Assembly: GCA_963726795.1 (NCBI GenBank)
Contig: CAVSDD010000008.1
Location: 28,668 to 92,667 of the forward strand
Source: an uncultured Alphaproteobacteria bacterium
Lineage (GTDB): Bacteria; Pseudomonadota; Alphaproteobacteria; Rhizobiales; Hyphomicrobiaceae
DNA: 64,000 nucleotides
Reading direction: 5' to 3'
In this document: in pieces, positions 1 to 16,735 of the stretch
Numbering within the stretch: the stretch's first letter is position 1
Layout: each line of letters starts with the position of its first letter
The notes under the pieces: generated by a model
The model's input: only the letters and a program-made list of their open reading frames with translations
Told to the model about the DNA's origin: nothing
Databases searched by the model: none
Made by a program: the position numbers and the translations under genes

Positions 1-1197
1 CACGCGACCCGTCGTCTCATCATCGAAGTTGTGCTCCCAGCGTACACCCCCAATGGAGCGGCGGTCGTCGCGGTTGGCACCGGCCTCGGCCGCCGTCTGC
101 GGCACGCGCGGATTGGTATTGGTTGCAGAAAAATTATTGACAGCACAGCCCGGCGCGGCCGTCGCCGCGGTCGCGCACCCCTGCTGAAACGGGTTGAGGT
201 TGAATTGGTTGAGCGACATGCGAAACGGCAGCTGGGTGTAAAGCTCGTTGTCGATCGCCTTGAACGTGATCTTGTCCCACGGGCTCGCCTGCACGGTGAG
301 CAGCATGTTGGCGGTCTGCGTGTTGAATTGGCTGTACCCGTACCAGCCATCGCCACGCACATCGCTCAAGAAGATCGAGCCTTCGTAGTTCGCGCCCTTC
401 ACGCCGGCAGTTGAATAATTGTTGAGGTAATTGAAGCTGCCGACATCGACGCCGTATTCCACCCCGTTGATCTCACCGCCCGGCCGCGTGCGAAAGTTGA
501 TCGCGCCACCCGTCGCGTAATTGCCGAACAAAGCCGAGGACGGCCCGCGCCACACGTCGACGCCGGCGTAGGCGTGCGGATCGATGAGGTCGCTGCGCGA
601 AAGCCCGTCCGGCTGTGTCACCGGGAAGCCGTCCTCGAAGATCACGATGTTGCGAATGCCAAAGCCGTTGCGCGCGTTGGAGCCGCGGATCGAGATGCCG
701 AGGTCGCGCGGTCCGTTGCCCTGCTTCAGCGATACGCCTGGGCTTTGGCGCAAGATGTCGCTGACGGTGAGCACCGGTTCTTTTTCGAGCCGCGTCGTGT
801 CGATGGCAGTCGCCGTCTGCGCCGCAGGACTGCCTGCGGTGCCGAAGATAGGCGGCGTGGCTGCGGCAGGGGTCCCGCCGTTGACCAAAGCGTTGGGCAA
901 CTTTGCAGGCGCAAGCTTCGGCTGTGCAGCCGGCGTCGTTGCAGCCTTGGCGACTTTCGCTTTCTTGGGCTTTTCGGCCGCCTTCGTCGGGGGCGGCGGC
1001 AACGTCTTCTGCTCCACTGTCACGGGCGGCAGCTGGTCCGCCGCCGGCTTGGTCGCGTCTTGCGCGCGCACGGGGAGCGTCAGCGCGATGCCAAGGCAAC
1101 CACAGGCGAGAAGTGTCGGAGATGAGCGTGCAGACGAAGCGGATTGCGCGCAGGCGCGCGAGACTGCCGCGCGGACGCGGCGATACGCATGGGACAT
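1..1197 (-). CDS. TonB-dependent outer-membrane receptor, N-terminal part only (gene runs off the left edge)
   Basis: Not in the ORF track because there is no stop inside the window. Manual reverse translation from ATG at 1197 gives the signal peptide MSHAYRRVRAAVSRACAQSASSARSSPTLLACGCLGIALTLPVRAQ, then a Pro/Ala/Lys linker, then plug-domain sequence VSDILRQSPGVSLKQGNGPRDLGISIRGSNARNGFGIRNIVIFEDGFPVTQPDG...VDVWRGPSSALFGNYATGGAINF. The frame stays open to base 1. Confidence 0.85.
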   Translation of the reverse strand, partial: MSHAYRRVRAAVSRACAQSASSARSSPTLLACGCLGIALTLPVRAQDATKPAADQLPPVTVEQKTLPPPPTKAAEKPKKAKVAKAATTPAAQPKLAPAKLPNALVNGGTPAAATPPIFGTAGSPAAQTATAIDTTRLEKEPVLTVSDILRQSPGVSLKQGNGPRDLGISIRGSNARNGFGIRNIVIFEDGFPVTQPDGLSRSDLIDPHAYAGVDVWRGPSSALFGNYATGGAINFRTRPGGEINGVEYGVDVGSFNYLNNYSTAGVKGANYEGSIFLSDVRGDGWYGYSQFNTQTANMLLTVQASPWDKITFKAIDNELYTQLPFRMSLNQFNLNPFQQGCATAATAAPGCAVNNFSATNTNPRVPQTAAEAGANRDDRRSIGGVRWEHNFDDETTGRV

Positions 1198-1296
1198 GAC
1201 GGTACGCTCGAGCTGAACATGTACGGGCGGCTGCGGACGCGCGCCAAGGTCCGGCGGCGTCCGAGCGATACAAAAATGGCCGCCGCTCGCGGCCGA

Positions 1297-1662
1297 TCAG
1301 CTCAAGGATGGTGGTCCGCGCGCGGAGGTGCCGCCCCCGCGCATAAAGGCGCGCACGAGATCGTGCGTGGGCGCGAACGCGAGCTTGGCAAACGTGAGAC
1401 TGAGCGCTGACGGGGCCGAAACGGGCTCGCTCAGCGCGACGCCTCCGGTCGATGCGTAGGCGCAAAGGCCCCGGTCGGCGGCCTTCGGCTTGGCGGGAGC
1501 GAGCTTGCCGTCGGACGTGAGCGTGGCGGTCGCGGGGCCGTGACCGGTGCAGATGACAACCGTCAGCTCGCCGCTGGCAGCCGGCGCAAGCATGAAGCCC
1601 ACGGGGACCACGCTGCGCAGCGCGAACGCCAGAACGATGATCACTGAAAGGAGGCGACGCAC
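1297..1662 (-). CDS. small secreted DUF2946-like protein (typical partner of TonB-dependent copper receptors)
   Basis: ORF 1297..1662. Signal peptide MRRLLSVIIVLAFALRS, then VPVGFMLAP...VVICTGHG...GLCAYAS. The family assignment is from memory of the DUF2946 pattern plus its position directly upstream of the receptor. Confidence 0.5.
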   Translation of the reverse strand: MRRLLSVIIVLAFALRSVVPVGFMLAPAASGELTVVICTGHGPATATLTSDGKLAPAKPKAADRGLCAYASTGGVALSEPVSAPSALSLTFAKLAFAPTHDLVRAFMRGGGTSARGPPSLS

Positions 1663-1857
1663 GACAACTGCTCCCCGGAACGGCGAGGTCGACCCTACGG
1701 ATTGAGACTTCTTAAATCAACGCAACTGGCGTCCAGTCTCCCAGGTCCAAAAACATCTGTAGCCGCAGGGACACAAACCACGAGTGACAGCAAGTCGCGG
1801 CATTGCCCACCTTTGGGGCGCGGCGGATATTCCGTGCGGCGAGCGCCGGTTCACGAG

Positions 1858-2310
1858 CTAGGCCGATTTGCTGCTAGCTGCCGATCGCCACAGACGCGGA
1901 CCGGCCTCGTCGACCGACAGCGCGCCCGCCCCGTACTTCATGAGAAAGAGCAGCGACACGGCCCACACGCCGTGCGTGTCGAACGCGTTGGGATAGACGA
2001 AGATCTCGATGACGAGCGTCATCATCAGCAAGCCCGCCGCGGCGAAGCGCGTGAGCAGGCCGGCAAAGATCAGGATTGGAAGCGTCAGCTCGGCCGCGGT
2101 CGCCATGTAGGCTGCGATCTCCGGCGGTATGAGCGGAAGACGGTACTCCTCGCGGAACAGCGTGAGCGTGTTGCCGTCCGCCCAGCCCTCAAGCTTCAGC
2201 ATGCCGGAACGGAAGAATGTCGTGCCGATGCCAATGCGGGCAACGTAGGAGATCAGGTCTTCGGGGATCGCCTTGAACCGGTCGACGGTGCTCTCGATCA
2301 GATCGCGCAT
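1858..2310 (-). CDS. DoxX-family membrane protein, fourth gene of the bufferin-type operon
   Basis: ORF 1858..2310. Multi-TM sequence FFRSGMLKLEGW...AAELTLPILIFAGLLTRFAAAGLLMMTLVIEIFVYP is typical of DoxX. The start overlaps the stop of the upstream DUF2063 gene. Confidence 0.8.
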   Translation of the reverse strand: MRDLIESTVDRFKAIPEDLISYVARIGIGTTFFRSGMLKLEGWADGNTLTLFREEYRLPLIPPEIAAYMATAAELTLPILIFAGLLTRFAAAGLLMMTLVIEIFVYPNAFDTHGVWAVSLLFLMKYGAGALSVDEAGPRLWRSAASSKSA

Positions 2311-3137
2311 TGGTTCATCCTCATGGCTGGAGACTGGGTTCGATCGAATTGGCGCTCTTGCGGGCGCACGTCGATGACGGCGCCGGCGCGGAACAGCGTC
2401 GCCAGCGCGGCGGCGAACTCGAACTCGCTGTCGAGCGCGGCAGCAGCCTCGGCTGAAAGCTCCAGCGAGTGCCCGGCGGCGAGGGCACGGATGAAGGCGA
2501 AGGTCGGCGTGTCGATACCGATCAGCGCAACGTCGAACTTTGGCCGGACGACGAGGGCGGCTTCTCCTCCAGCCGAAACATCAATCGGCCGCACGATCTC
2601 GTCGTGCGTGTTGGTGTGCCAGAGGCTGAGCACGGGATAGTCGGAGATCAGGATGGCGCACGAGGGGTGCAGCATCAGGCTGGAATCGAGCGCATCATCG
2701 CCGAACCGGCCAAGCTTTGTTGCGGCGATCGGCTGAGCGTCGGCTGCATGGTAGGCGGCGGCCAACATCCATTCGAGCCGCGCCACATCGGACAAATACG
2801 GTAGTGCCCGGGCTGGCTCAAAGGTGCTCAGAAAATGCGGGAACTCCTCGCCATATTCGAAGAGCGCCGGCGAAAGCGGCGGGTGGTCGGCAATGAACAC
2901 TTTTGCCATCGCCGCGAAGAAATCTTCGCCGACCAGCCTCGCGACGACCGGGAAGCGCGCTGCAAGGCAGCCCGTGAGGCTCGCAAAGACGTTGTTGCGG
3001 TAGATGGTGAAGCGCTTGGCCCGAGCGGCAACGCGCGGTCCCAGCACGTCCGCCGGCAGTTCGTCGCTCTGCCACAGCAGGGCGCGCGCGAAGGCGCCCT
3101 GGTGGTCCTCGATCGAAGCGTTTGTTTCACGCCACAC
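2298..3137 (-). CDS. bufC: DUF2063-domain protein (BufC-like partner of the MNIO enzyme)
   Basis: ORF 2298..3137. FTIYRNNVFASLTGCLAARFPVVARLVGEDFFAAMAKVFIADHPPLSPALFEYGEEFPHFL matches the DUF2063 signature. It overlaps the DUF692 stop by 11 nt. Confidence 0.8.
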   Translation of the reverse strand: MWRETNASIEDHQGAFARALLWQSDELPADVLGPRVAARAKRFTIYRNNVFASLTGCLAARFPVVARLVGEDFFAAMAKVFIADHPPLSPALFEYGEEFPHFLSTFEPARALPYLSDVARLEWMLAAAYHAADAQPIAATKLGRFGDDALDSSLMLHPSCAILISDYPVLSLWHTNTHDEIVRPIDVSAGGEAALVVRPKFDVALIGIDTPTFAFIRALAAGHSLELSAEAAAALDSEFEFAAALATLFRAGAVIDVRPQERQFDRTQSPAMRMNQCAI

Positions 3138-4014
3138 GCGAATATCCCTCCTTCCGGGAACTCATGAGCAAATCGGCCTTCATTGCCTCGGCATAGAGAT
3201 CGCTCCACGCGGGCACGTCGTTGTCCCATTCGATCAGCGTCGCCGTCGGGCCGCCGCGCGCGATGACGCGCTCGTAGAGGCCCCACACCGCGTTGCGCAC
3301 CACGCCATCGTGGGAATCGATGAGGAGCGGCGTTCCGTCCTCATCATCCAGCTGCGCGTAGCCGGCGAGATGGATCTCGCCCGCGTGCTCCAGTGGAAAT
3401 TCGTCGATGTAGCTCACAGGATCGAAGCGGTGGTTGGTGGCGCAGACGAAGACATTGTTGCAGTCGAGCAGCAGCCCGCAGCCGCTGCGCTCGACGAGCG
3501 CGCGCAGGAATTCGATCTCGGACATTTCGCTGTTGGCGAAGGTGACGTAGGTCGACGGATTTTCGATGAGCACGCGGCGCTTCAGGGCCGTTTGCATCTG
3601 ATCGACGTGACGGGCCACGTGAGCGAGTGTTGTCTCGTTGTAGGGCAGCGGAAACAGATCGTTGAGAAACGCGCCTTCGTGCGTCGACCAGGCGAGGTGC
3701 TCGGACACGAGCCCCGGCTCGTAGCGCTTGACCAGCGCCGCCAATCGATTGAGGTGCTCGCGGTTGAGCGGCTCTGCGCCACCGATCGACAGCCCGACGC
3801 CGTGCAGCGAGAGCGGATACCTCGCGCGCACGCGCTCCAGCACGTGGTGCGGCCAGCCACCGGCACCCATGAAGTTTTCCGGGTGCACCTCGAACCAGCC
3901 GATATCGGGCCAGACGTCGAGGATGTCGCGATAGTGCTCGGGCTTCAGTCCGACCCCGGCTCGCGCCGGGATCGGAGCAGGCGCTTTCTGTCCGAGCTTG
4001 ATTGCTGCAGACAT
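3127..4014 (-). CDS. bufB: DUF692 multinuclear non-heme iron oxidase (MNIO, BufB-like)
   Basis: C-terminal 295 codons of ORF 3127..4281. The start is set at the internal ATG (4014) giving MSAAIKLG..., because the upstream 89 codons are Arg/Pro junk overlapping the precursor gene. Motifs seen: GVGLKPEHY, WFEVHPENFMGAGG, LSLHGVGLSIGG, SEHLAWS, LPLPYNE, LIENPSTY, LLLDCNNVFV, IHLAGY. Confidence 0.9.
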   Translation of the reverse strand: MSAAIKLGQKAPAPIPARAGVGLKPEHYRDILDVWPDIGWFEVHPENFMGAGGWPHHVLERVRARYPLSLHGVGLSIGGAEPLNREHLNRLAALVKRYEPGLVSEHLAWSTHEGAFLNDLFPLPYNETTLAHVARHVDQMQTALKRRVLIENPSTYVTFANSEMSEIEFLRALVERSGCGLLLDCNNVFVCATNHRFDPVSYIDEFPLEHAGEIHLAGYAQLDDEDGTPLLIDSHDGVVRNAVWGLYERVIARGGPTATLIEWDNDVPAWSDLYAEAMKADLLMSSRKEGYSRVA

Positions 4015-4021
4015 CGCCGCC

Positions 4022-4315
4022 TCAGGACTTGACGGGTTGCAGCGAGCCGTCGCGCTTGGTGCCGTCGGGCAGGGTGACCGACGTGGTGGTGCACGTGCCG
4101 GCCGGCACGTACTTCCAGGCGCCCTTGTCGTATTGGACTTTAGACGTACCCGCGCACGAGTTATTGCCGGCGGAGGCGCAGTCGTTCTTGCCGGCGGGGC
4201 TGATGCCGTAGCATTTCTCTTTGCTGGCATCGTCCGCCAGTGTTGCCTGCGACAAGGCGGCGACGCCGGCGACCGCTGCAACGGCGGACAAAAGAAGGGT
4301 CCGGGACTGAGTCAT
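4022..4315 (-). CDS. bufA: DUF2282 bufferin-type RiPP precursor with Sec signal peptide (BufA1-like)
   Basis: ORF 4022..4315. Signal peptide MTQSRTLLLSAVAAVAGVAALSQATLA, then a four-Cys core EKCYGISPAGKNDCASAGNNSCAGTSKVQYDKGAWKYVPAGTC. It ends 8 nt upstream of the MNIO gene. Confidence 0.85.
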   Translation of the reverse strand: MTQSRTLLLSAVAAVAGVAALSQATLADDASKEKCYGISPAGKNDCASAGNNSCAGTSKVQYDKGAWKYVPAGTCTTTSVTLPDGTKRDGSLQPVKS

Positions 4316-4401
4316 TGGGATTTGTCTCCGTATTTGGCGAACTGTTCAATGCCGGCCAGGCTCGGCCGACAGGTCCAAATTGCCGTCACAGAGGAAGGGA
4401 G

Positions 4402-4442
4402 TGAAATGCCCGCTGGCTATGGATTTGATAAAGGCGCGCCAA
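4402..4442 (-). promoter_or_regulatory. 41-bp LTTR/OxyR-type operator module, copy oriented toward bufA
   Basis: The reverse strand reads TTGGCGCGCCTTTATCAAATCCATAGCCAGCGGGCATTTCA. It has the same column spacing as the six forward copies and ends 86 nt upstream of the bufA ATG. The first dyad is degenerate; the second ATAG is perfect. Confidence 0.55.
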
Positions 4443-4447
4443 CGCCG

Positions 4448-4488
4448 ATAGCGCGGGGCTATCAATTTCGGAGGAAGCCACTATTTCC
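4448..4488 (+). promoter_or_regulatory. 41-bp LTTR/OxyR-type operator module, copy oriented toward the peroxiredoxin-like genes
   Basis: ATAGCGCGGGGCTATCAATTTCGGAGGAAGCCACTATTTCC. ATAG-N7-CTAT dyad plus a distal CTAT. It lies back to back with the 4402..4442 copy. Confidence 0.65.
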
Positions 4489-4656
4489 ACTGTCGCGCCG
4501 GCTCTCGCATGGTGCCTGCATGGAGAAGACTAGCCCCACTTGCGAGATCAATTGGAAACCTGGAGGTCTTCGGGCGTTCTCGGTGCAGCCAATCGACAAG
4601 GTGCACGGCAGCATCGGCGCGCGGACCAGGTTCGCCAAAACAGGAATTGGATCAGG

Positions 4657-5352
4657 GTGACGCGGCCAAATACACTGGAGCAAGCCTTCGCCGACATCTG
4701 CACGATGGACGGACCCCTGAGCGGCAAGCTCGCCGCCTATTCCGCAAAGCTGCAGGAGCTGAACTTCCCGTTCGCCGAAGCCTACGACACGCTGGTCGCC
4801 CGCCTCATCGATGGGCAAATCGGATCCGCGGCGCCCAAGGTCGGCGAGCCGATGCCGACGTTCGTTCTGCCAAACCAGGCCGGGCATCTCATCGCTCTTG
4901 AGGATCTGCTCACGAGCGGCGCCGTGGTGATCAGCTTCAACCGGGGACACTGGTGCCCGTTCTGCAAGATCGAGTTGCGGACGCTCGCGAGCTATCACGA
5001 GGAGATCGCCGCTCACGGCGCACAGGTTGTTTCCATCCTCCCCGACCGGCAGAAATTCGTCGAAAAGCTTAACGAGCACACGCACGGCAAGCTCCCGATC
5101 CTCACCGATATCGACAATGGCTACGCGCTGTCGCTGGGTCTCGTCTTGTGGCTGGGCGATCGCCTCAAGGAGCTGATGAGCGGCCGCGGGCTGCATTTGG
5201 AGGAGATCCACGGCAACGACGGCTGGTTCGTGCCGCTACCTGCGACATTCGTGGTAGCGCGCGACGGGACCGTCATCTCGCGCCACGTGGACCCGGAATT
5301 CCGGTCGCGAATGGAGGTCGATGAGATCCTTCGCGCGTTGCGCGGCGCCTGA
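4657..5352 (+). CDS. peroxiredoxin-like / AhpC-TSA family protein with CxxC motif, paralog 1
   Basis: In frame with ORF 4540..5352. The start is moved to GTG 4657 (VTRPNTLEQAFADIC) by alignment with the N-termini of the two downstream paralogs. Motifs seen: FNRGHWCPFC, DIDNGYALSLGLV, PATFVV..DG.V....VDPEFR.RME. Confidence 0.8.
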   Translation: MTRPNTLEQAFADICTMDGPLSGKLAAYSAKLQELNFPFAEAYDTLVARLIDGQIGSAAPKVGEPMPTFVLPNQAGHLIALEDLLTSGAVVISFNRGHWCPFCKIELRTLASYHEEIAAHGAQVVSILPDRQKFVEKLNEHTHGKLPILTDIDNGYALSLGLVLWLGDRLKELMSGRGLHLEEIHGNDGWFVPLPATFVVARDGTVISRHVDPEFRSRMEVDEILRALRGA

Positions 5353-5436
5353 AGCCATAGTAGCCAGGAGCAGGGATTTCTGGCCGGTTTGAACCGGTTA
5401 CCCGCTTGTCCGCTTTAGGCCGCGAGCGCCGCCACG

Positions 5437-6150
5437 ATGACTGAGACGAGCCCGCTCGACGCGGCTTTCCAAAAGATCTGCGCCACCGAGGCGCCGTTGA
5501 ACGAGCGGCTGGCTCTCTTCACCGCGGCAGTCGAGGCGCACGGACAGCCCTTCGCCGTCGCATACCATAACCTCGTAACCCAGCTGGATGCCGCCGCTGC
5601 TGGCACGACCGCACCGGGACCCGGCGATACGCTGCCGGATTTCCTGTTGCCCGACTACACAGGCAAGCTCGTTCAACTGGAGGAGCTGCTCGAGGTCGGC
5701 CCCGTCGTCGTCAGCTTCAACCGCGGCCACTGGTGCGAGTATTGCGAGCTTGAGCTGATCGCCTTCGCAGAAGCGCAGGCGGAGCTCGCGCGGCATGGCG
5801 CTCAGGTTATTTCCATCATGCCTGAGCGCAGCGAATATACGCGCAGCGTGCGCGCGCTCACCGGCGATACCGTGACTGTGGTCTCCGATATCGACAACGG
5901 CTACGCGCTTTCGCTCGGCCTCGTCATTTGGCTCGGCGAAACGGTGCGCGGGCTGTATCAGCAGTTCGGATTGGACATCGAACGCTACCAGGGAAACGGC
6001 ATGTGGTTTGTGCCGATCCCGGCAACGTTCGTGCTCGACCGGCAGGGCAAGATCGTCGCGCGCAAGGTCGATCCGGACTTTCGCACCCGAATGGACCTGG
6101 ATGAAATACTAGCCGCCCTGCTAACGACCCAGACTGCCCATAATGGCTAG
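5437..6150 (+). CDS. peroxiredoxin-like / AhpC-TSA family protein with CxxC motif, paralog 2
   Basis: ORF 5437..6150. FNRGHWCEYC, DIDNGYALSLGLVIWLG, PATFVLDRQGKIVARKVDPDFRTRMD. Collinear with paralogs 1 and 3. Confidence 0.85.
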   Translation: MTETSPLDAAFQKICATEAPLNERLALFTAAVEAHGQPFAVAYHNLVTQLDAAAAGTTAPGPGDTLPDFLLPDYTGKLVQLEELLEVGPVVVSFNRGHWCEYCELELIAFAEAQAELARHGAQVISIMPERSEYTRSVRALTGDTVTVVSDIDNGYALSLGLVIWLGETVRGLYQQFGLDIERYQGNGMWFVPIPATFVLDRQGKIVARKVDPDFRTRMDLDEILAALLTTQTAHNG

Positions 6151-6236
6151 CGGCAATTCTGGAGAGAGACAGTCATTTTTCTGGCCATTCGGGCCGGTTC
6201 GGACCAGAATTGCATTTTACGAATTCGGAGCCGGCG

Positions 6237-6947
6237 ATGGCTGAACCATCGATTGCCGAAATCCTGGAAGAGACAACCGAGCGCTGCCGCAATCTCGATG
6301 CGCCGCTCGCCGGGCGGCTGCAGGCCTTCGCCGATGAAGTGCGCGCGCTCAACTCCGAATTTGCCGACACGGTTGAGCGCATGGTCGCGCGGCTTCGGGC
6401 TTCGGGCGCGGGCGAAAGAGCTCCGGGCCCGGGCGAGCCGATGCCGGAGTTCATGCTGCCCGATCAGCAGGGCCGTCTCGTCAGTCTTTCGGATCTCATC
6501 ACGGCCGGCCCGGTCGTCGTTGCTTTCCACAGAGGTCACTGGTGTCCGTACTGTCGCATCACCGCCGACGCGCTCACGCGTATCCACACGTCGGTGCGAG
6601 ATCTAGGTGCGCAACTTGTCGTCATCACGCCGGAGATCGAGCGGTTCAACGAGGAGCTGCGCGCGGCTGTGAGTGCGCCTTTTTCGGTTCTGTCCGACAT
6701 GGACAACGGCTACGCGCTGATGCTGAACCTCGCCTTCTACGTGGGCGATGAGAAAAAGAAGCTGATGAAGTTCGCGGGCTGGAACATCCCGCCTTACAAC
6801 GCGAACGACAACTGGACGCTGCCGATCCCGGCGACCTTCGTCGTCGGCCAGGACGGGCTGGTGAAGGCCCGCCACATCGATCCCGACTACCGCAAGCGCA
6901 TGGACGCGGAAGCGATCCTCACCGCGATCAAAGCGTCGCGGAGCTAA
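6237..6947 (+). CDS. peroxiredoxin-like / AhpC-TSA family protein with CxxC motif, paralog 3
   Basis: ORF 6210..6947. ATG 6237 is preferred (GGAG about 9 nt upstream; MAEPSIAEIL). Motifs seen: FHRGHWCPYC, DMDNGYALMLNL, PATFVVGQDGLVKARHIDPDYRKRMD. Confidence 0.8.
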   Translation: MAEPSIAEILEETTERCRNLDAPLAGRLQAFADEVRALNSEFADTVERMVARLRASGAGERAPGPGEPMPEFMLPDQQGRLVSLSDLITAGPVVVAFHRGHWCPYCRITADALTRIHTSVRDLGAQLVVITPEIERFNEELRAAVSAPFSVLSDMDNGYALMLNLAFYVGDEKKKLMKFAGWNIPPYNANDNWTLPIPATFVVGQDGLVKARHIDPDYRKRMDAEAILTAIKASRS

Positions 6948-6960
6948 GCGGGGTCGGAGT

Positions 6961-7863
6961 TCACGCGGCCTTGGAGGCAGCTTCGCGGCGCGACCAGTCC
7001 GACGCCCGCATCATCTTAATCAGGGTGCTCGCGGCCATCGATCGCTGCCGCCCGGCGACGGCGTAGACATAGACCGTTCGCTGCATGTCGAATCCATCGA
7101 CTTCGATCAGCTTGATCTGCGGCGACATCGACGTGCTTTCCGGCGCCATTCCGACACCCAGGCCCGCCGCCAGAATCGCCACAAAATCGGCGTCCGAGCC
7201 GGCGTGGTGCGAGGCGTCAAATTCGACACCCACTGCGTTCAGAATGGCGCGCCCGCGCTCGAAGTCCTCGCAGTAGGGACGGCAGACGATGCGCTCGCTC
7301 TTGAGGTCGGCAGCGCCGATTCTGCTCTTGGCAGCGAACGAATGACCGATGCCGACGACGAGCCGATAGGACTCCGTGAACAGCTGCCAGCCTTCCAGCC
7401 GGTCCCAGCTCTCGGCCAGTTTCGGCGCCACGGCGACCTCTGCGTCGCCCTTCTTGAGATGCTCGGCGATCTCCGCGCTCGTACCGCGCAGGAATTTCAG
7501 GTTGAGCCCCGGCATCGCGCGCACGAGCTCTTTCAGGAACGGAAGCACGATCTCGATATTCACGGTGAGCGGCAGCGCAATCGAGAGCGGCGCAATCGCT
7601 CCCTTCTTGATTGACGTCGCAACCTGCTTTGCGGCCTGAGCGCTGTCGAAGCACTGCTGCATCAGCGGCAGCATGCGGTGGCCGAGCTCGGAGAGGTGCG
7701 TGAGATTGCGCTCGCGGCGGAAGAGCTCGCCGCCGAGCTCCTCTTCCAGCTGCTTGATGGCGCGGGTCAGCGACGGTTGTGCAACGTGGCATTCCTCGGC
7801 GGCGCGGGTGAAATTCAATAGTCGCGCCACGGCAAGGAAGTACCGAACCTGGTGCATCTCCAT
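6961..7863 (-). CDS. LysR-family transcriptional regulator (LTTR 1)
   Basis: C-terminal 300 codons of ORF 6961..8130, with the start at ATG 7863 giving MEMHQVRYFLAVARLLNFTRAAEECHVAQPSLTRAIKQLEEELGGELF (LTTR helix-turn-helix). CRPYC lies at residues 194-198. It is divergent from bdhA with an operator copy in between. Confidence 0.85.
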   Translation of the reverse strand: MEMHQVRYFLAVARLLNFTRAAEECHVAQPSLTRAIKQLEEELGGELFRRERNLTHLSELGHRMLPLMQQCFDSAQAAKQVATSIKKGAIAPLSIALPLTVNIEIVLPFLKELVRAMPGLNLKFLRGTSAEIAEHLKKGDAEVAVAPKLAESWDRLEGWQLFTESYRLVVGIGHSFAAKSRIGAADLKSERIVCRPYCEDFERGRAILNAVGVEFDASHHAGSDADFVAILAAGLGVGMAPESTSMSPQIKLIEVDGFDMQRTVYVYAVAGRQRSMAASTLIKMMRASDWSRREAASKAA

Positions 7864-7929
7864 GCGGGTACCGAAGCTTATCCCAAACGCGGCGGCAAAA
7901 TTCGCTCGATTAGAAAATAGCGCCAAGCC

Positions 7930-7970
7930 ATAGCCGCCCGCTATCAATTCCGGACCCATACGGCATTTCA
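7930..7970 (+). promoter_or_regulatory. 41-bp LTTR/OxyR-type operator module in the lysR-bdhA divergent region
   Basis: ATAGCCGCCCGCTATCAATTCCGGACCCATACGGCATTTCA. It lies 66 nt from the LTTR start and 140 nt from the bdhA start, which is the classic divergent LTTR arrangement. Confidence 0.7.
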
Positions 7971-8110
7971 GCTTACAACTTCTTACACGTACCGTCGCTG
8001 GCGAAACTGGTTCCCCGCTGACGGTCTCCCCCGCCGTCAGTTCCCTGGACCCGGGGCCTTGTGCCCCTCGCGAGTGCCCCGGGTCGATTTTCTGCTGACA
8101 GCGACCGGAG

Positions 8111-8956
8111 ATGACCAAAATGCTGGACAAACCTTTGAAAACGGCAGGCGATGCAGCCCCGTTCGGCTATGGCGAATTATCGGGCAAATCGACCATCGTG
8201 ACCGGCTCGACCAGCGGCATCGGCCTGGGTGTAGCGCGTGCATTCGCGGCCTGCGGCATGAACGTCATGCTGAACGGTTTCGGCGACCGGGCCGAGATCG
8301 ACCGCACGGCGGCCGAGCTTGCCGATACCTATGGCATCAAGACCGCCTATTCGGCTGCCGACATGTCGAGGCCCGACGATATCGCCCGCATGGTCGATTG
8401 GACCACCGAGACATTCGGTGCCGTCGATGTGCTGGTCAACAACGCGGGCATCCAGCACGTGGAGGCGATCGAGACGTTTCCCCTCGAGAAGTGGAACGCC
8501 ATTCTCGCGATCAACTTGTCGGCGGCCTTCCACGCGATCCGCGCGGTTGTCGCCGGCATGAAGACGCGCCGCTTCGGCCGCATCATCAATGTCGCCTCGG
8601 CGCACGCGCTCGTGGCTTCGCCGTTCAAATCAGCCTACGTCGCCGCCAAGCACGGCATCGTCGGTTTGACCAAGACGGTGGCGCTCGAGACCGCCGAGTT
8701 CGGCATCACCGCCAACGCCATTTGCCCGGGGTACGTGCTCACCCCTTTGGTGCAAAAGCAGATCCCGGAGACCGCCAAGGCGCGCGGGCTCACCGAGGAG
8801 CAGGTCGTTCGTGACGTGCTGCTGCATGCCCAGCCGACGCGGCAGTTCGTGACCACCGAGGAGATCGGCGCGCTCGCGGTGTTTCTCTGCTCGCAGTCGG
8901 CGCGCTCGATCACCGGCGCGGCGATCCCGGTCGAAGGCGGCTGGACCGCCCAGTAA
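8111..8956 (+). CDS. bdhA: 3-hydroxybutyrate dehydrogenase (SDR family)
   Basis: ORF 8111..8956. TGSTSGIGLG, NNAGIQHV, SAHALVASPFKSAYVAAKHGIVGLTK, ICPGYVLTPLV, GGWTAQ C-terminus. An alternative ATG at 8120 has better GGAG spacing. Confidence 0.9.
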   Translation: MTKMLDKPLKTAGDAAPFGYGELSGKSTIVTGSTSGIGLGVARAFAACGMNVMLNGFGDRAEIDRTAAELADTYGIKTAYSAADMSRPDDIARMVDWTTETFGAVDVLVNNAGIQHVEAIETFPLEKWNAILAINLSAAFHAIRAVVAGMKTRRFGRIINVASAHALVASPFKSAYVAAKHGIVGLTKTVALETAEFGITANAICPGYVLTPLVQKQIPETAKARGLTEEQVVRDVLLHAQPTRQFVTTEEIGALAVFLCSQSARSITGAAIPVEGGWTAQ

Positions 8957-9039: not shown

Positions 9040-9080
9040 ATAGCCCAGGGCTATCGATACGGTTGCCAAACGGCATTTCA
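9040..9080 (+). promoter_or_regulatory. 41-bp LTTR/OxyR-type operator module upstream of the cupin-MFS pair
   Basis: ATAGCCCAGGGCTATCGATACGGTTGCCAAACGGCATTTCA. It ends 89 nt upstream of ATG 9170. Confidence 0.7.
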
Positions 9081-10979: not shown

Positions 10980-11020
10980 ATAGGCCAGGACTATGGAGTT
11001 CGGAGCCAATCGCTATTTCA
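10980..11020 (+). promoter_or_regulatory. 41-bp LTTR/OxyR-type operator module upstream of DUF302-patatin
   Basis: ATAGGCCAGGACTATGGAGTTCGGAGCCAATCGCTATTTCA. This is the most degenerate forward copy. It ends 77 nt upstream of ATG 11098. Confidence 0.55.
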
Positions 11021-12900: not shown

Positions 12901-12932
12901 TCACACACCGCGAGTCGCTCGCTCGAGCTGTC

Positions 12933-12954
12933 GCCGGCATGTTGACGTGCCGGC
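12933..12954 (+). terminator. hairpin downstream of the patatin gene
   Basis: GCCGGCA-tgttgacg-TGCCGGC. A 7-bp stem with no clear U-run. Confidence 0.3.
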
Positions 12955-13071
12955 GCAGTCGTTTCGAGCCGCAGCTGCATTTGCATCTCCCTAAAATTCG
13001 ACCAGAAATCCCCGCGATGCCGACGGCGCTGGAACGTTACCGCTGGCGCGTTGCGACCGAACAGCTCACCG

Positions 13072-13112
13072 ATAGCGCACGAGCATCAATTCAAAAGGAA
13101 CTCGGCATTTCA
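13072..13112 (+). promoter_or_regulatory. 41-bp LTTR/OxyR-type operator module upstream of the 41-codon peptide gene
   Basis: ATAGCGCACGAGCATCAATTCAAAAGGAACTCGGCATTTCA. It ends 113 nt upstream of ATG 13226. Confidence 0.65.
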
Positions 13113-13225
13113 GTTCGGCACCTGGGAACGGCATAACGGCTTCACGGAAGTGCTGACGAGTTCGCATTCAGCCAATCCGAAGACCGAGAGTTTCAAACGC
13201 AATGCCAACCCCCAGGAGACCTACA

Positions 13226-13351
13226 ATGAAAGCCTTCATCATCGCCGCTCTCTTCACGATCGCTTCCGTCGCCACGCTCGGCGCGCCGGCCCAGGCCGAC
13301 AGCTTCACCGTGCACGGCTTCAACGGCGGCAACTCGTACGGCGGCCGCTAA
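13226..13351 (+). CDS. 41-aa secreted peptide (predicted 17-aa mature part), absent from the ORF track
   Basis: Manual translation gives MKAFIIAALFTIASVATLGAPAQA/DSFTVHGFNGGNSYGGR*. AGGAGA lies 8 nt upstream of the ATG. A strong intrinsic terminator follows 27 nt after the stop, and the gene has its own operator copy upstream. Confidence 0.6.
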   Translation: MKAFIIAALFTIASVATLGAPAQADSFTVHGFNGGNSYGGR

Positions 13352-13642: not shown

Positions 13643-13683
13643 ATAGCTTGCGGCTATCGAATCCCGATCCAATCGATATTTCA
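13643..13683 (+). promoter_or_regulatory. 41-bp LTTR/OxyR-type operator module upstream of the 88-aa secreted protein gene
   Basis: ATAGCTTGCGGCTATCGAATCCCGATCCAATCGATATTTCA. It ends 103 nt upstream of ATG 13787. Confidence 0.65.
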
Positions 13684-13786
13684 GCCGGCACCGCCGCGTC
13701 GGTAGTTTGCCCTTGCACGCAGACAGCGTCGCACCCCCGCGACGAGGATGCGCAAAGTGATTGTTTCAAACCCAAGGGAGACCACC

Positions 13787-14053
13787 ATGAAGAGAATCGC
13801 AATTGCAGCGGTTGCCGCCGCCCTGCTCGCAGGCGTCACCCCCGCCCTCGCCAAGGAAGATTGCAATGCCGGTTACAAGGATTTCCTCGGCAAGATGTCG
13901 ATCTACGTCAACAAGATGAGCGGCTATGAGCTGGCTGACGCCGTGCGCAAGTCGCTCGACGCCTACAACTCCTGCTCCTCGGGCGACAACTTCTCGCCCC
14001 ATGGCGTCTGGGACGGCATCCTGGCCGACATGAAGTCCAAGGCCGGCAACTAA
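13787..14053 (+). CDS. 88-aa secreted hypothetical protein (two Cys)
   Basis: In frame with ORF 13748..14053. ATG 13787 has GGGAGA upstream. Signal peptide MKRIAIAAVAAALLAGVTPALA, and a mature part KEDCNAGYKDFL...AYNSCSSGDNFSPHG. Confidence 0.65.
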   Translation: MKRIAIAAVAAALLAGVTPALAKEDCNAGYKDFLGKMSIYVNKMSGYELADAVRKSLDAYNSCSSGDNFSPHGVWDGILADMKSKAGN

Positions 14054-15793: not shown

Positions 15794-16735
15794 ATGGAGA
15801 TGCATCAGGTCCGCTATTTCCTGGCATCCGCCCGGCATCTCAATTTCACCAAGGCCGCCGAGGAGTGCAACGTCGCCGGCCCCTCGCTGATCAAGGCGAT
15901 CAAGCTGCTCGAGATGGAATTCGGCGGCCCGCTGTTCAACCGCGAGCGCTCCCATACGCACCTGACCGAGCTCGGACGCATCGCGCTGCCGCACCTGGAG
16001 CAGGTGTTGCAGGAATCGCTCGACGCCAAACGCAAGGCGCACGATTTCCTCCACCTGAAGGAGGCGACGCTCAAGATCGGTATCATGTGCACGATTGCGC
16101 CGAGCCAGTTTGTCGAGCTGATCGCCAGCTTCCGTTCCCGCTATCCCAACGTCGTGCTGCAGATCATCGACGCCAATGCGCGCCAGCTGCAACTGGCGCT
16201 GCTGGCGGGCGACCTCGAGGCGGCGATCTACTGCCTCCCGGGCGAGCCCGAGCATGAGCGCACCCACGTGATGCCGCTGTTCAAGGAGCAGATGGTCATC
16301 GCGGTGTGCCGCAGCCACGTGCTCTCGCGCAAGAAGGTGGTCAAGGGATCGGACCTGAGCGGGGAAGCCTACCTGGACCGGATCAACTGCGAGTTCACCG
16401 GCTACGCCGACCGCCTGTTCTCGGAGCGCTCGATTGACGGGCCGACCGTCTACCAGAGCGAGCGCGACGACTGGATCCTCGCCATGATCGCTGCCGGCAT
16501 GGGCTACGGATTCATACCTCGATCCTCGGCGCTTTACCCCGGCGTCATCTATCGGCCGCTGACCGAGCCCGAGTTCTGGCGCACGGTCAATCTCGTCACG
16601 GTGCGCGGCCGGCGGCACTCGCCCGCGATGGGTGCGCTCGTGCGCGAGGTTGTGCGCACCAAGTGGCAGGGACGCGAAGCGCTCGCCGCAGAGGTCGCAC
16701 GAGCCGGGCTGGACGACGCGCCTAATGACCCTTAG
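15794..16735 (+). CDS. LysR-family transcriptional regulator (LTTR 2, paralog of 6961..7863)
   Basis: ORF 15794..16735. MEMHQVRYFLASARHLNFTKAAEECNVAGPSLIKAIKLLEMEFGGPLF. It shares its first ten residues and the HTH with LTTR 1. Cys is at residue 199 by my count. Confidence 0.85.
   Translation: MEMHQVRYFLASARHLNFTKAAEECNVAGPSLIKAIKLLEMEFGGPLFNRERSHTHLTELGRIALPHLEQVLQESLDAKRKAHDFLHLKEATLKIGIMCTIAPSQFVELIASFRSRYPNVVLQIIDANARQLQLALLAGDLEAAIYCLPGEPEHERTHVMPLFKEQMVIAVCRSHVLSRKKVVKGSDLSGEAYLDRINCEFTGYADRLFSERSIDGPTVYQSERDDWILAMIAAGMGYGFIPRSSALYPGVIYRPLTEPEFWRTVNLVTVRGRRHSPAMGALVREVVRTKWQGREALAAEVARAGLDDAPNDP

Follow-up and report, generated by a model that had tools for sequence, protein, structure and literature searches.

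A bufferin operon next to a CruR-type leader and a TonB-dependent receptor in an uncultured Hyphomicrobiaceae bacterium: two copper-related modules that are probably independent

Two kinds of copper-related gene systems are of relevance to the work described here. The characterised bufferins are folded periplasmic proteins of ~70 residues, which are induced by copper excess and have no dedicated export system (PMC11626156), and the papers describing them report a four-gene core and its control by SigF/NrsF and BvgAS (PMC11626156, PMC12452194). The CruR systems, in contrast, are induced by copper scarcity (PMC9426467). As defined in Bordetella pertussis, CruR is encoded by a DUF2946 upstream open reading frame (ORF), and as a nascent peptide it halts the ribosome at a C-terminal RAPP motif, senses copper via a CXXC motif 45 +/- 1-2 residues upstream of RAPP, and governs transcription into the gene for a TonB-dependent transporter (PMC9426467). 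The motif RGPP arrests translation at least as strongly as RAPP, and small secreted proteins encoded upstream of TonB-dependent receptors are enriched for it at their C-termini (PMC12992588). The present work concerns a locus where genes of both kinds adjoin. It is found in a stretch of 64,000 nucleotides (nt) from an uncultured Alphaproteobacteria bacterium of the family Hyphomicrobiaceae (contig CAVSDD010000008.1; referred to below as the window), in which six genes within positions 1-4315, all on the minus strand, comprise the bufferin operon bufABCD, a DUF2946 gene and the gene for a TonB-dependent receptor. The original prediction for this locus envisaged that a post-translationally modified peptide of ribosomal origin (RiPP) and an outer-membrane importer were coupled here as one unit under a shared operator. 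Based on the results presented below, we consider it likely that these genes constitute two independent copper-related modules, which lie side by side in this lineage only. Both modules are of known kinds, in a variant regulatory setting.

The comparison of gene neighbourhoods covered, on the receptor side, 8 orthologous loci from species-representative genomes (viz. Hyphomicrobium, Bradyrhizobium, Methylocella and unclassified metagenome-assembled genomes; 52-66% identity), as well as 16 more loci from a metagenome scan, of which 15 are likely orthologues at 51-80% identity. On the bufferin side it covered 11 loci derived from eight BufB relatives (63-80% identical BufB), 10 of which reach past bufD. 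The gene order bufC-bufD-DUF2946-receptor is also seen on L001, a 778-kb metagenome contig with near-identical proteins that extends beyond the window edge, and on a second contig, obtained in a different sequencing run, whose DUF2946 protein is identical. However, no match to bufA-D was found in any of the receptor loci, 10 of which have at least 6 kb of upstream sequence, and no match to DUF2946 or the receptor was found in the 11 bufferin loci, where the gene after bufD varies among the 10 loci that reach it (a DNA glycosylase, small ORFs, an opposite-strand porin, a flavin mononucleotide reductase and others). The two sets of loci share only the window and L001, and the adjacency of the two modules is therefore specific to this lineage. 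Within the receptor loci themselves, the order receptor-propeller-thioredoxin is present in all 8 genome loci and in all six metagenome loci that reach far enough downstream. Ahead of the receptor, a DUF2946 gene was found in 3 metagenome loci and in all 6 genome loci for which the upstream sequence was read. The predicted coupling of RiPP and importer is thus not borne out by the neighbourhood comparison, bufABCD being absent from the 10 receptor loci with enough upstream sequence and the DUF2946 and receptor genes being absent after bufD in 10 bufferin loci. The adjacency is probably an incidental accident of gene order, and as a RiPP-importer wiring is not supported by the comparative data, there is no case for following it up as a conserved system. 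In the text of the bufferin papers (PMC11626156, PMC12452194), a search for TonB, DUF2946, LysR, AhpC and redoxin revealed no mention of these terms. The neighbourhood rule used in those papers admitted unrelated genes only within 10 bp, and due to this the two neighbours reported here would escape it.

The bufferin genes of the window are the same in gene order and families as the bufABCD genes of Caulobacter vibrioides and the gig operons of Cupriavidus metallidurans and Legionella pneumophila (PMC11626156, PMC12452194). Families were assigned by Pfam and NCBIfam profile searches with the family cut-offs, and each of the families that had been named for the six proteins was recovered in this way, that of DUF2946 marginally. 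The first gene, bufA (4022..4315, minus strand), encodes a Buf1-type bufferin precursor of 97 aa (Pfam DUF2282/BufA1, 76.5 bits; cut-off 22.4), which contains the peptide EKCYGISPAGKNDCASAGNNSCAGTSKV...GTC that had been quoted earlier. Its N-terminus corresponds to a Sec-type signal (MTQSRTLLLSAVAAVAGVAALSQATLA) that is retained in an alignment of 7 sequences, where the cysteines C35, C46, C54 and C75 are also invariant; read directly from the sequence, this signal appears to consist of a basic n-region, the hydrophobic segment LLLSAVAAVAGVAAL and a cleavage-type site TLA|DD. The MNIO (DUF692) bufferin maturase of 295 aa is encoded by bufB (3127..4014, minus strand), for which the ATG at 4014 was preferred as the start over a longer TTG reading frame, and it matches the NCBIfam equivalog MNIO_BufB with 383.5 bits (cut-off 310) and Pfam MbnB_TglH_ChrH (PF05114) with 347 bits. 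The DUF2063 partner (RRE-type; 279 aa) encoded by bufC (2298..3137, minus strand) scores 91.5 bits with Pfam DUF2063 and 64.5 bits with NCBIfam HvfC, the latter under its cut-off of 142, and bufD (1858..2310, minus strand) encodes a DoxX membrane protein of 150 aa (Pfam DoxX, 62.7 bits). Judged by its domains, gene order and the BufB equivalog match, bufABCD is a regular Buf1-type bufferin cluster, in agreement with the bufferin/gig architecture originally proposed for it. By homology, BufB and BufC would convert two central cysteines of BufA into 5-thiooxazoles in the cytoplasm, after which the Sec signal would direct BufA to the periplasm for the chelation of copper.

The four bufferin genes are, as predicted, tightly coupled on the minus strand, with bufB starting 7 bp past the bufA stop and with overlaps of 11 bp (bufB/bufC) and 13 bp (bufC/bufD). 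The DUF2946 and receptor genes do follow on the same strand, but because of gaps of 195 bp and 99 bp they are not tightly coupled to the bufferin genes. The 195-bp gap between bufD and the DUF2946 gene (1663..1857, minus strand), which contains a weak terminator-like hairpin (1738-1724) and is without an operator unit, is likely the boundary of two transcription units. The folding of this gap is no better than that of shuffled sequence (z = 0.54), and it therefore provides evidence neither for nor against a terminator there. In the alignment of 7 loci (mean identity 52%), no conserved promoter or operator was found in the 200 nt upstream of the DUF2946 gene, and a sigma-70 promoter scan of positions 1-8200, which is uninformative for GC-rich alphaproteobacterial sequence, gave 0 matches against 0.8 expected.

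The other end of the bufferin operon shows a different type of association. A repeat finder identified a six-member family (D2) of the form ATAGC-N5-GCTAT-N7-(15 nt)-TTCA, whose units are all on the plus strand and start at 4448, 7930, 9040, 10980, 13072 and 13643, and with a minus-strand unit at 4442-4402 there are seven operator units in the window. Two of these lie back to back between bufA and the divergent redoxin genes. The redoxin-facing unit (4448..4488, plus strand) has the perfect T-N11-A palindrome ATAGCGCGGGGCTAT, followed after a 7-nt spacer by a second site and then TTCC, whereas the bufA-facing unit (4402..4442, minus strand) reads TTGGCGCGCCTTTAT-CAAATCC-ATAGCCAGCGGGCAT-TTCA and ends 87 nt ahead of the bufA ATG. 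The bufA-side box was first seen as a conserved element in the bufA-redoxin gap of relatives, and it aligns as a full minus-strand unit of the family. With a weight matrix derived from the other five units, the bufA-facing and redoxin-facing units score 25.4 and 36.3 bits, respectively, while the best score per simulated 64-kb sequence (n=30) averaged 7.2 +/- 2.1 with a maximum of 12.3. Both units stand out by their conservation within an intergenic alignment that is divergent elsewhere. They are both retained in L011, L012, L013, L016, L017 and L019; in L018 only the redoxin-facing unit is above the threshold, and in L021 a 38-bit unit is present ahead of bufA. Scans with the same matrix found no operator unit in the sigma/NrsF loci L014 and L015, in the Cus-type locus L020 or in any of the receptor loci, and within the window none near the DUF2946 and receptor genes and none in the bufD-DUF2946 gap. 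The shared operator of the original prediction is therefore upheld for bufABCD, where it is conserved in orthologous loci, but not for the DUF2946 and receptor genes, and a joining of the RiPP and the importer by it into one unit is not supported. The link of bufABCD to the operator and to the redoxin genes on its other side is more durable than the adjacency of the receptor.

The genes on the far side of these operator units also recur with the bufferin genes. Divergent from bufA there are three tandem AhpC/TSA-Redoxin genes on the plus strand, at 4657 (or 4540)-5352, 5437-6150 and 6210-6947 (Pfam AhpC-TSA, ~70 bits each), which are paralogous (repeat families D1, D3 and D5), carry a GHWCxxC motif and lack a signal peptide. 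Their closest solved structures are only thiol-disulfide oxidoreductases of the ResA type. Next to them is the gene for a LysR-type regulator of 299 aa (6961..7860, minus strand; Pfam HTH_1 and LysR_substrate), which is a candidate binder of the operator. Two or three tandem redoxin genes accompany bufABCD in 8 related loci (L011-L013, L016-L019 and L021), and the LysR gene, which adjoins the redoxin genes in related loci as well, is present in the 7 of these that reach far enough, the eighth contig being too short. A short-chain dehydrogenase/reductase (SDR) gene and a cupin gene are likewise present in the six related loci that reach that far. In L021 the redoxin genes are located 37 nt after bufD on the same strand, so that the association with bufABCD persists in a different arrangement; this placement hints at a functional tie of the redoxins to bufferin production. 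In comparison to the Caulobacter bufferin, the operon described here is without an adjoining extracytoplasmic function (ECF) sigma/NrsF pair, and a LysR-type operator unit and two or three tandem CxxC redoxin genes are linked to it instead. Other arrangements do occur among the relatives. In L014 (6307-10133; BufB 69% identical), the first relative in which this arrangement is seen, an ECF sigma/NrsF pair of the Caulobacter type is divergent from bufA and replaces the redoxin genes, and in Hyphomicrobium sp. CS1GBMeth3 (L020 1246-9181), bufABCD comes directly after YtkA-CusB-CusA.

The five further operator units (7930-7970, 9040-9080, 10980-11020, 13072-13112 and 13643-13683, all plus strand) precede the SDR gene (8111), a cupin gene together with a major facilitator superfamily (MFS) gene (9170, 9726), DUF302 and patatin genes (~11298, 11614), and the genes for two small exported peptides (13202-13351, 13748-14053), with an M12 metallopeptidase gene (14138) further downstream. 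The first of these units lies 70 nt upstream of the LysR gene at 6961-7860 and faces the divergent SDR gene. Taken together, the further operator units look like those of a sizeable LysR regulon, and since bufABCD carries a unit of the same LysR type, it would be a member of this local regulon. The regulon would span bufABCD, the divergent CxxC redoxins, the SDR, the cupin and MFS genes, and the DUF302 and patatin genes, under a putative LysR-type binder. In common with other divergent T-N11-A LysR regulons, the window shows an ATAGC-N5-GCTAT palindrome with a weaker second site at the distance of one spacer, it has a regulator gene in divergent orientation, and the unit is shared by several target promoters. 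It differs from them in that the units for the divergent promoters are placed back to back and one of these promoters is that of a RiPP operon; the pairing with the regulator is putative. A second LysR gene is also present at 15794-16735 (plus strand), and over 215 nt the HTH-coding parts of the two LysR genes show 72% complementarity (inverted repeat I1). In the relatives, the gap between bufA and the redoxin genes is ~590-650 nt, compared to 341 nt in the window, and the longer gap holds, downstream of the redoxin-facing operator, an ORF for a small hydrophobic peptide of 36-43 aa that the gap in the window lacks (L011 ~7074-7184 region, L016 7300-7431, L018 5524-5655, L019 6302-6433).

The second module starts with the DUF2946 gene (1297..1662, minus strand), which encodes 121 aa and passes the Pfam DUF2946 cut-off of 23.7 marginally with 27.4 bits, an assignment that is backed by the alignment of its orthologues. 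The view that pairing of such a gene with a TonB-dependent receptor is otherwise seen at copper-uptake loci agrees with the literature (PMC9426467; bioRxiv 10.1101/072470). The protein has a signal-like N-terminus, Cys38 within ICTGHG (which includes His41), Cys67 within CAYA (residues 67-70), and RGPP at 115-118, three residues ahead of the stop, with 44 residues between the Cys motif and RGPP. In six aligned orthologous leaders C38, C67, R115, P117 and P118 are invariant. The CXXC motif is degraded to CxxA in the window and in three Hyphomicrobium orthologues (CAYA/CPYA), whereas the second cysteine is kept in the leaders from Methylocella (CPLC) and Bradyrhizobium (CSVC). On these sequence features, the DUF2946 protein is a CruR-type arrest-peptide leader with variant motifs. 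With cruR-crtA-crpH (bp2923-bfrG-bp2921) of B. pertussis it shares the DUF2946 leader, the signal-like N-terminus and an arrest motif three residues from the stop (PMC9426467, PMC12914433), as well as the spacing of 44-45 residues and a long non-coding gap ahead of the TonB-dependent receptor, which here begins 99 bp downstream. The window differs from cruR-crtA in having RGPP in place of RAPP and CxxA in place of CXXC. Upstream, bufD lies at 195 bp on the same strand, while the orthologous leader genes are preceded by unrelated genes. In analogy with cruR-crtA, a ribosome stalled at the C-terminal RGPP would let transcription proceed into the receptor gene, and once the nascent peptide senses metal, the stall would be lifted and transcription would come to an end within the 99 bp ahead of the receptor gene. 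Such a module would be an uptake system that is turned on under copper scarcity. However, as the CXXC motif is reduced to CxxA, the metal response of the leader in the window is uncertain.

A further difference from B. pertussis, where termination is Rho-dependent, is the presence of a terminator-like hairpin directly past the leader stop. This GC-rich hairpin (1278..1294, minus strand; GGCCGC-GAGCG-GCGGCC, then ATTTTTGT) begins 3 nt past the stop and, together with a T-run, looks like an intrinsic terminator. Its 5' arm would be covered if a ribosome were stalled at RGPP, and this suggests that the stall may control intrinsic termination there. The hairpin is not kept in the orthologous loci, where hairpins occur elsewhere in position and are without a T-run, and a ribosome-controlled intrinsic terminator is therefore a lead that rests on the window alone.

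The receptor gene (1..1197, minus strand) is cut by the window edge, and the first 399 of 816 residues that it encodes in the window comprise a signal peptide, a Pro/Ala/Lys-rich linker and the plug (Plug, 64.2 bits). The full-length receptor on L001 (816 aa) has the plug and a beta-barrel domain, the latter with 123.6 bits. Its best solved relatives are the pyrroloquinoline quinone (PQQ) importers YncD and PqqU (~1e-26, mostly over the plug). No match to the OprC-type model TIGR01778 was found at E <= 0.001, and the best NCBIfam match is PqqU with 140 bits against a cut-off of 1200. Past the window edge, the genes for a BNR-like propeller and for a thioredoxin-like protein come after the receptor gene on L001. 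The propeller of Hyphomicrobium facile is intact (406 aa) and shows a signal peptide, a His-rich N-terminus and CECC and CPHxG motifs, and the thioredoxin of this species is periplasmic with a CxxC motif; no match to the propeller was found among solved structures or NCBIfam models. In comparison to cruR-crtA, the window's receptor falls outside the CrtA cluster by its best matches, and downstream of it are genes for a propeller and a thioredoxin. In B. pertussis a PepSY_TM protein is encoded in this place, and more than 75% of CrtA loci have a PepSY_TM gene there (PMC12914433). Membership of the receptor in the CrtA or OprC type was considered, and it was rejected on the best matches, on TIGR01778 and on the downstream genes not being PepSY_TM.

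Several points weigh against the interpretation that these are two independent copper-related modules. The gap between bufD and the DUF2946 gene has neither a convincing terminator nor a recognisable promoter, and read-through from bufD may occur. The bufferin loci that carry the operator belong to one clade, so that they do not represent many independent observations, and the protein that binds the operator could be the LysR regulator at 6961-7860, that at 15794-16735, or neither. On the receptor side, the second cysteine of CXXC, which is required for copper control in B. pertussis, is absent here and in Hyphomicrobium, and the receptor, being outside the CrtA/OprC families, need not have copper as its substrate. 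The first of these points is also what an alternative interpretation draws upon, according to which all six genes form one functional unit, where the receptor would import copper and the periplasmic bufferin would receive or buffer it, or where read-through from the LysR-controlled bufA promoter would feed the DUF2946 leader, which gates the receptor. The six genes are indeed on one strand with no strong terminator in the 195-bp gap, the order from bufC to the receptor is repeated on L001 and on the second contig, and both modules are copper-related by homology. However, we regard this interpretation as unlikely, because the adjacency is missing both in the 10 receptor loci with enough flanking sequence and in the 10 bufferin loci that extend past bufD, the orthologous DUF2946 genes, where found, are preceded by unrelated genes, the operator unit is not near the DUF2946 gene, and the characterised members of the two systems respond to copper in opposite directions, viz. 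the bufferins to its excess and the CruR systems to its scarcity (PMC11626156, PMC9426467). Somewhat less probable again is the possibility that the leader of this clade, having lost the CXXC motif, no longer senses copper, and that the receptor module is constitutive or serves another ligand or metal rather than copper uptake. The CAYA/CPYA motifs of the window and the three Hyphomicrobium leaders, as opposed to CPLC/CSVC in Methylocella and Bradyrhizobium, are consistent with such a loss, as is the behaviour of the B. pertussis CruR mutant C90S+C93S, in which copper control was lost and expression retained (PMC9426467), and the nearest characterised relatives of the receptor import PQQ. Against this, the leader has kept Cys38 with His41 (ICTGHG) and Cys67, residues by which Cu(I) could still be bound, as well as the spacing to RGPP, and the His-rich N-terminus and the CECC and CPHxG motifs of the propeller suggest metal binding.

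Very improbable, in our view, is the suggestion that the receptor imports a copper-loaded bufferin or a fragment thereof, in the manner that MbnT imports the MNIO-made chalkophore methanobactin. The methanobactin operons (MbnA, MbnB/C, MbnT) do provide a precedent, which PMC12914433 and PMC9601215 cite, for a dedicated TonB-dependent receptor in the same cluster as an MNIO RiPP, and in the window, too, the genes for an MNIO-modified copper-binding peptide and for such a receptor adjoin. However, the enzyme in the window is BufB and not MbnB (47.6 bits with the MbnB model, against a cut-off of 325), and its precursor has a Sec signal, so that, like the characterised bufferins, which are periplasmic and without a dedicated export system (PMC11626156), it would be exported and stay a small periplasmic protein. 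The linkage to the receptor is also not conserved. With the MbnB score, the Sec signal and the absence of synteny against it, a methanobactin-like reading was rejected. In B. pertussis, where the study of CrtA asked whether bufferin is the ligand of this transporter, the answer was no, as inactivation of the bufferin operon did not phenocopy the loss of the CruR-controlled transporter CrtA (PMC12914433). A more speculative proposal, which we also regard as unlikely, is that in this Hyphomicrobiales clade bufferin belongs to a LysR-controlled thiol/redox regulon rather than being a copper-stress device under a sigma factor, with the redoxins serving its maturation and the lineage of the window adding a copper importer to give a supply-and-buffer unit. 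The cytoplasmic CxxC redoxins would, for example, keep the cysteines of the precursor or the iron site of the MNIO reduced.

The points worth keeping are the link of bufferin to LysR and redoxins and the CxxA-RGPP variant of the leader. A clade of bufferins that is tied to a LysR-type operator and tandem CxxC redoxins, and not to SigF/NrsF, offers a handle on how bufferins are controlled or assisted, and a leader with CxxA and RGPP and a terminator-like hairpin at its stop could help in dissecting metal sensing by nascent peptides. The four-gene receptor module, which is conserved across Hyphomicrobium, Bradyrhizobium and Methylocella, is of interest in its own right as its function is undescribed.

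A number of other observations were made in the course of these comparisons. The possibility that the receptor module was inserted between bufD and a transglutaminase-core gene was considered and set aside, as the proteins of L001 and L018 concerned are 54% identical, which is too weak for them to serve as orthologous anchors. On L001, bufB (7650-8536) is broken by a 1-nt frameshift into parts of 199 and 96 aa, while the copy in the window is intact, and a frameshift also seems to be present close to the 5' end of the propeller gene that follows the receptor (~12919-13172); both of these frameshifts are probably assembly errors. An ATG located 2 nt past the receptor stop on L001 encodes a signal peptide and HSGHMH in a frame that differs from that of the called ORF. 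The module of DUF2946 leader, receptor, propeller and thioredoxin, of which we found no description, is represented by L002 (10404-12136), L003-L009 and L022-L028. In two of the Bradyrhizobium loci (L005 5435-6310 and L008 4746-6842), the thioredoxin gene is followed by a second, distant TonB-dependent receptor (25-30% identity).

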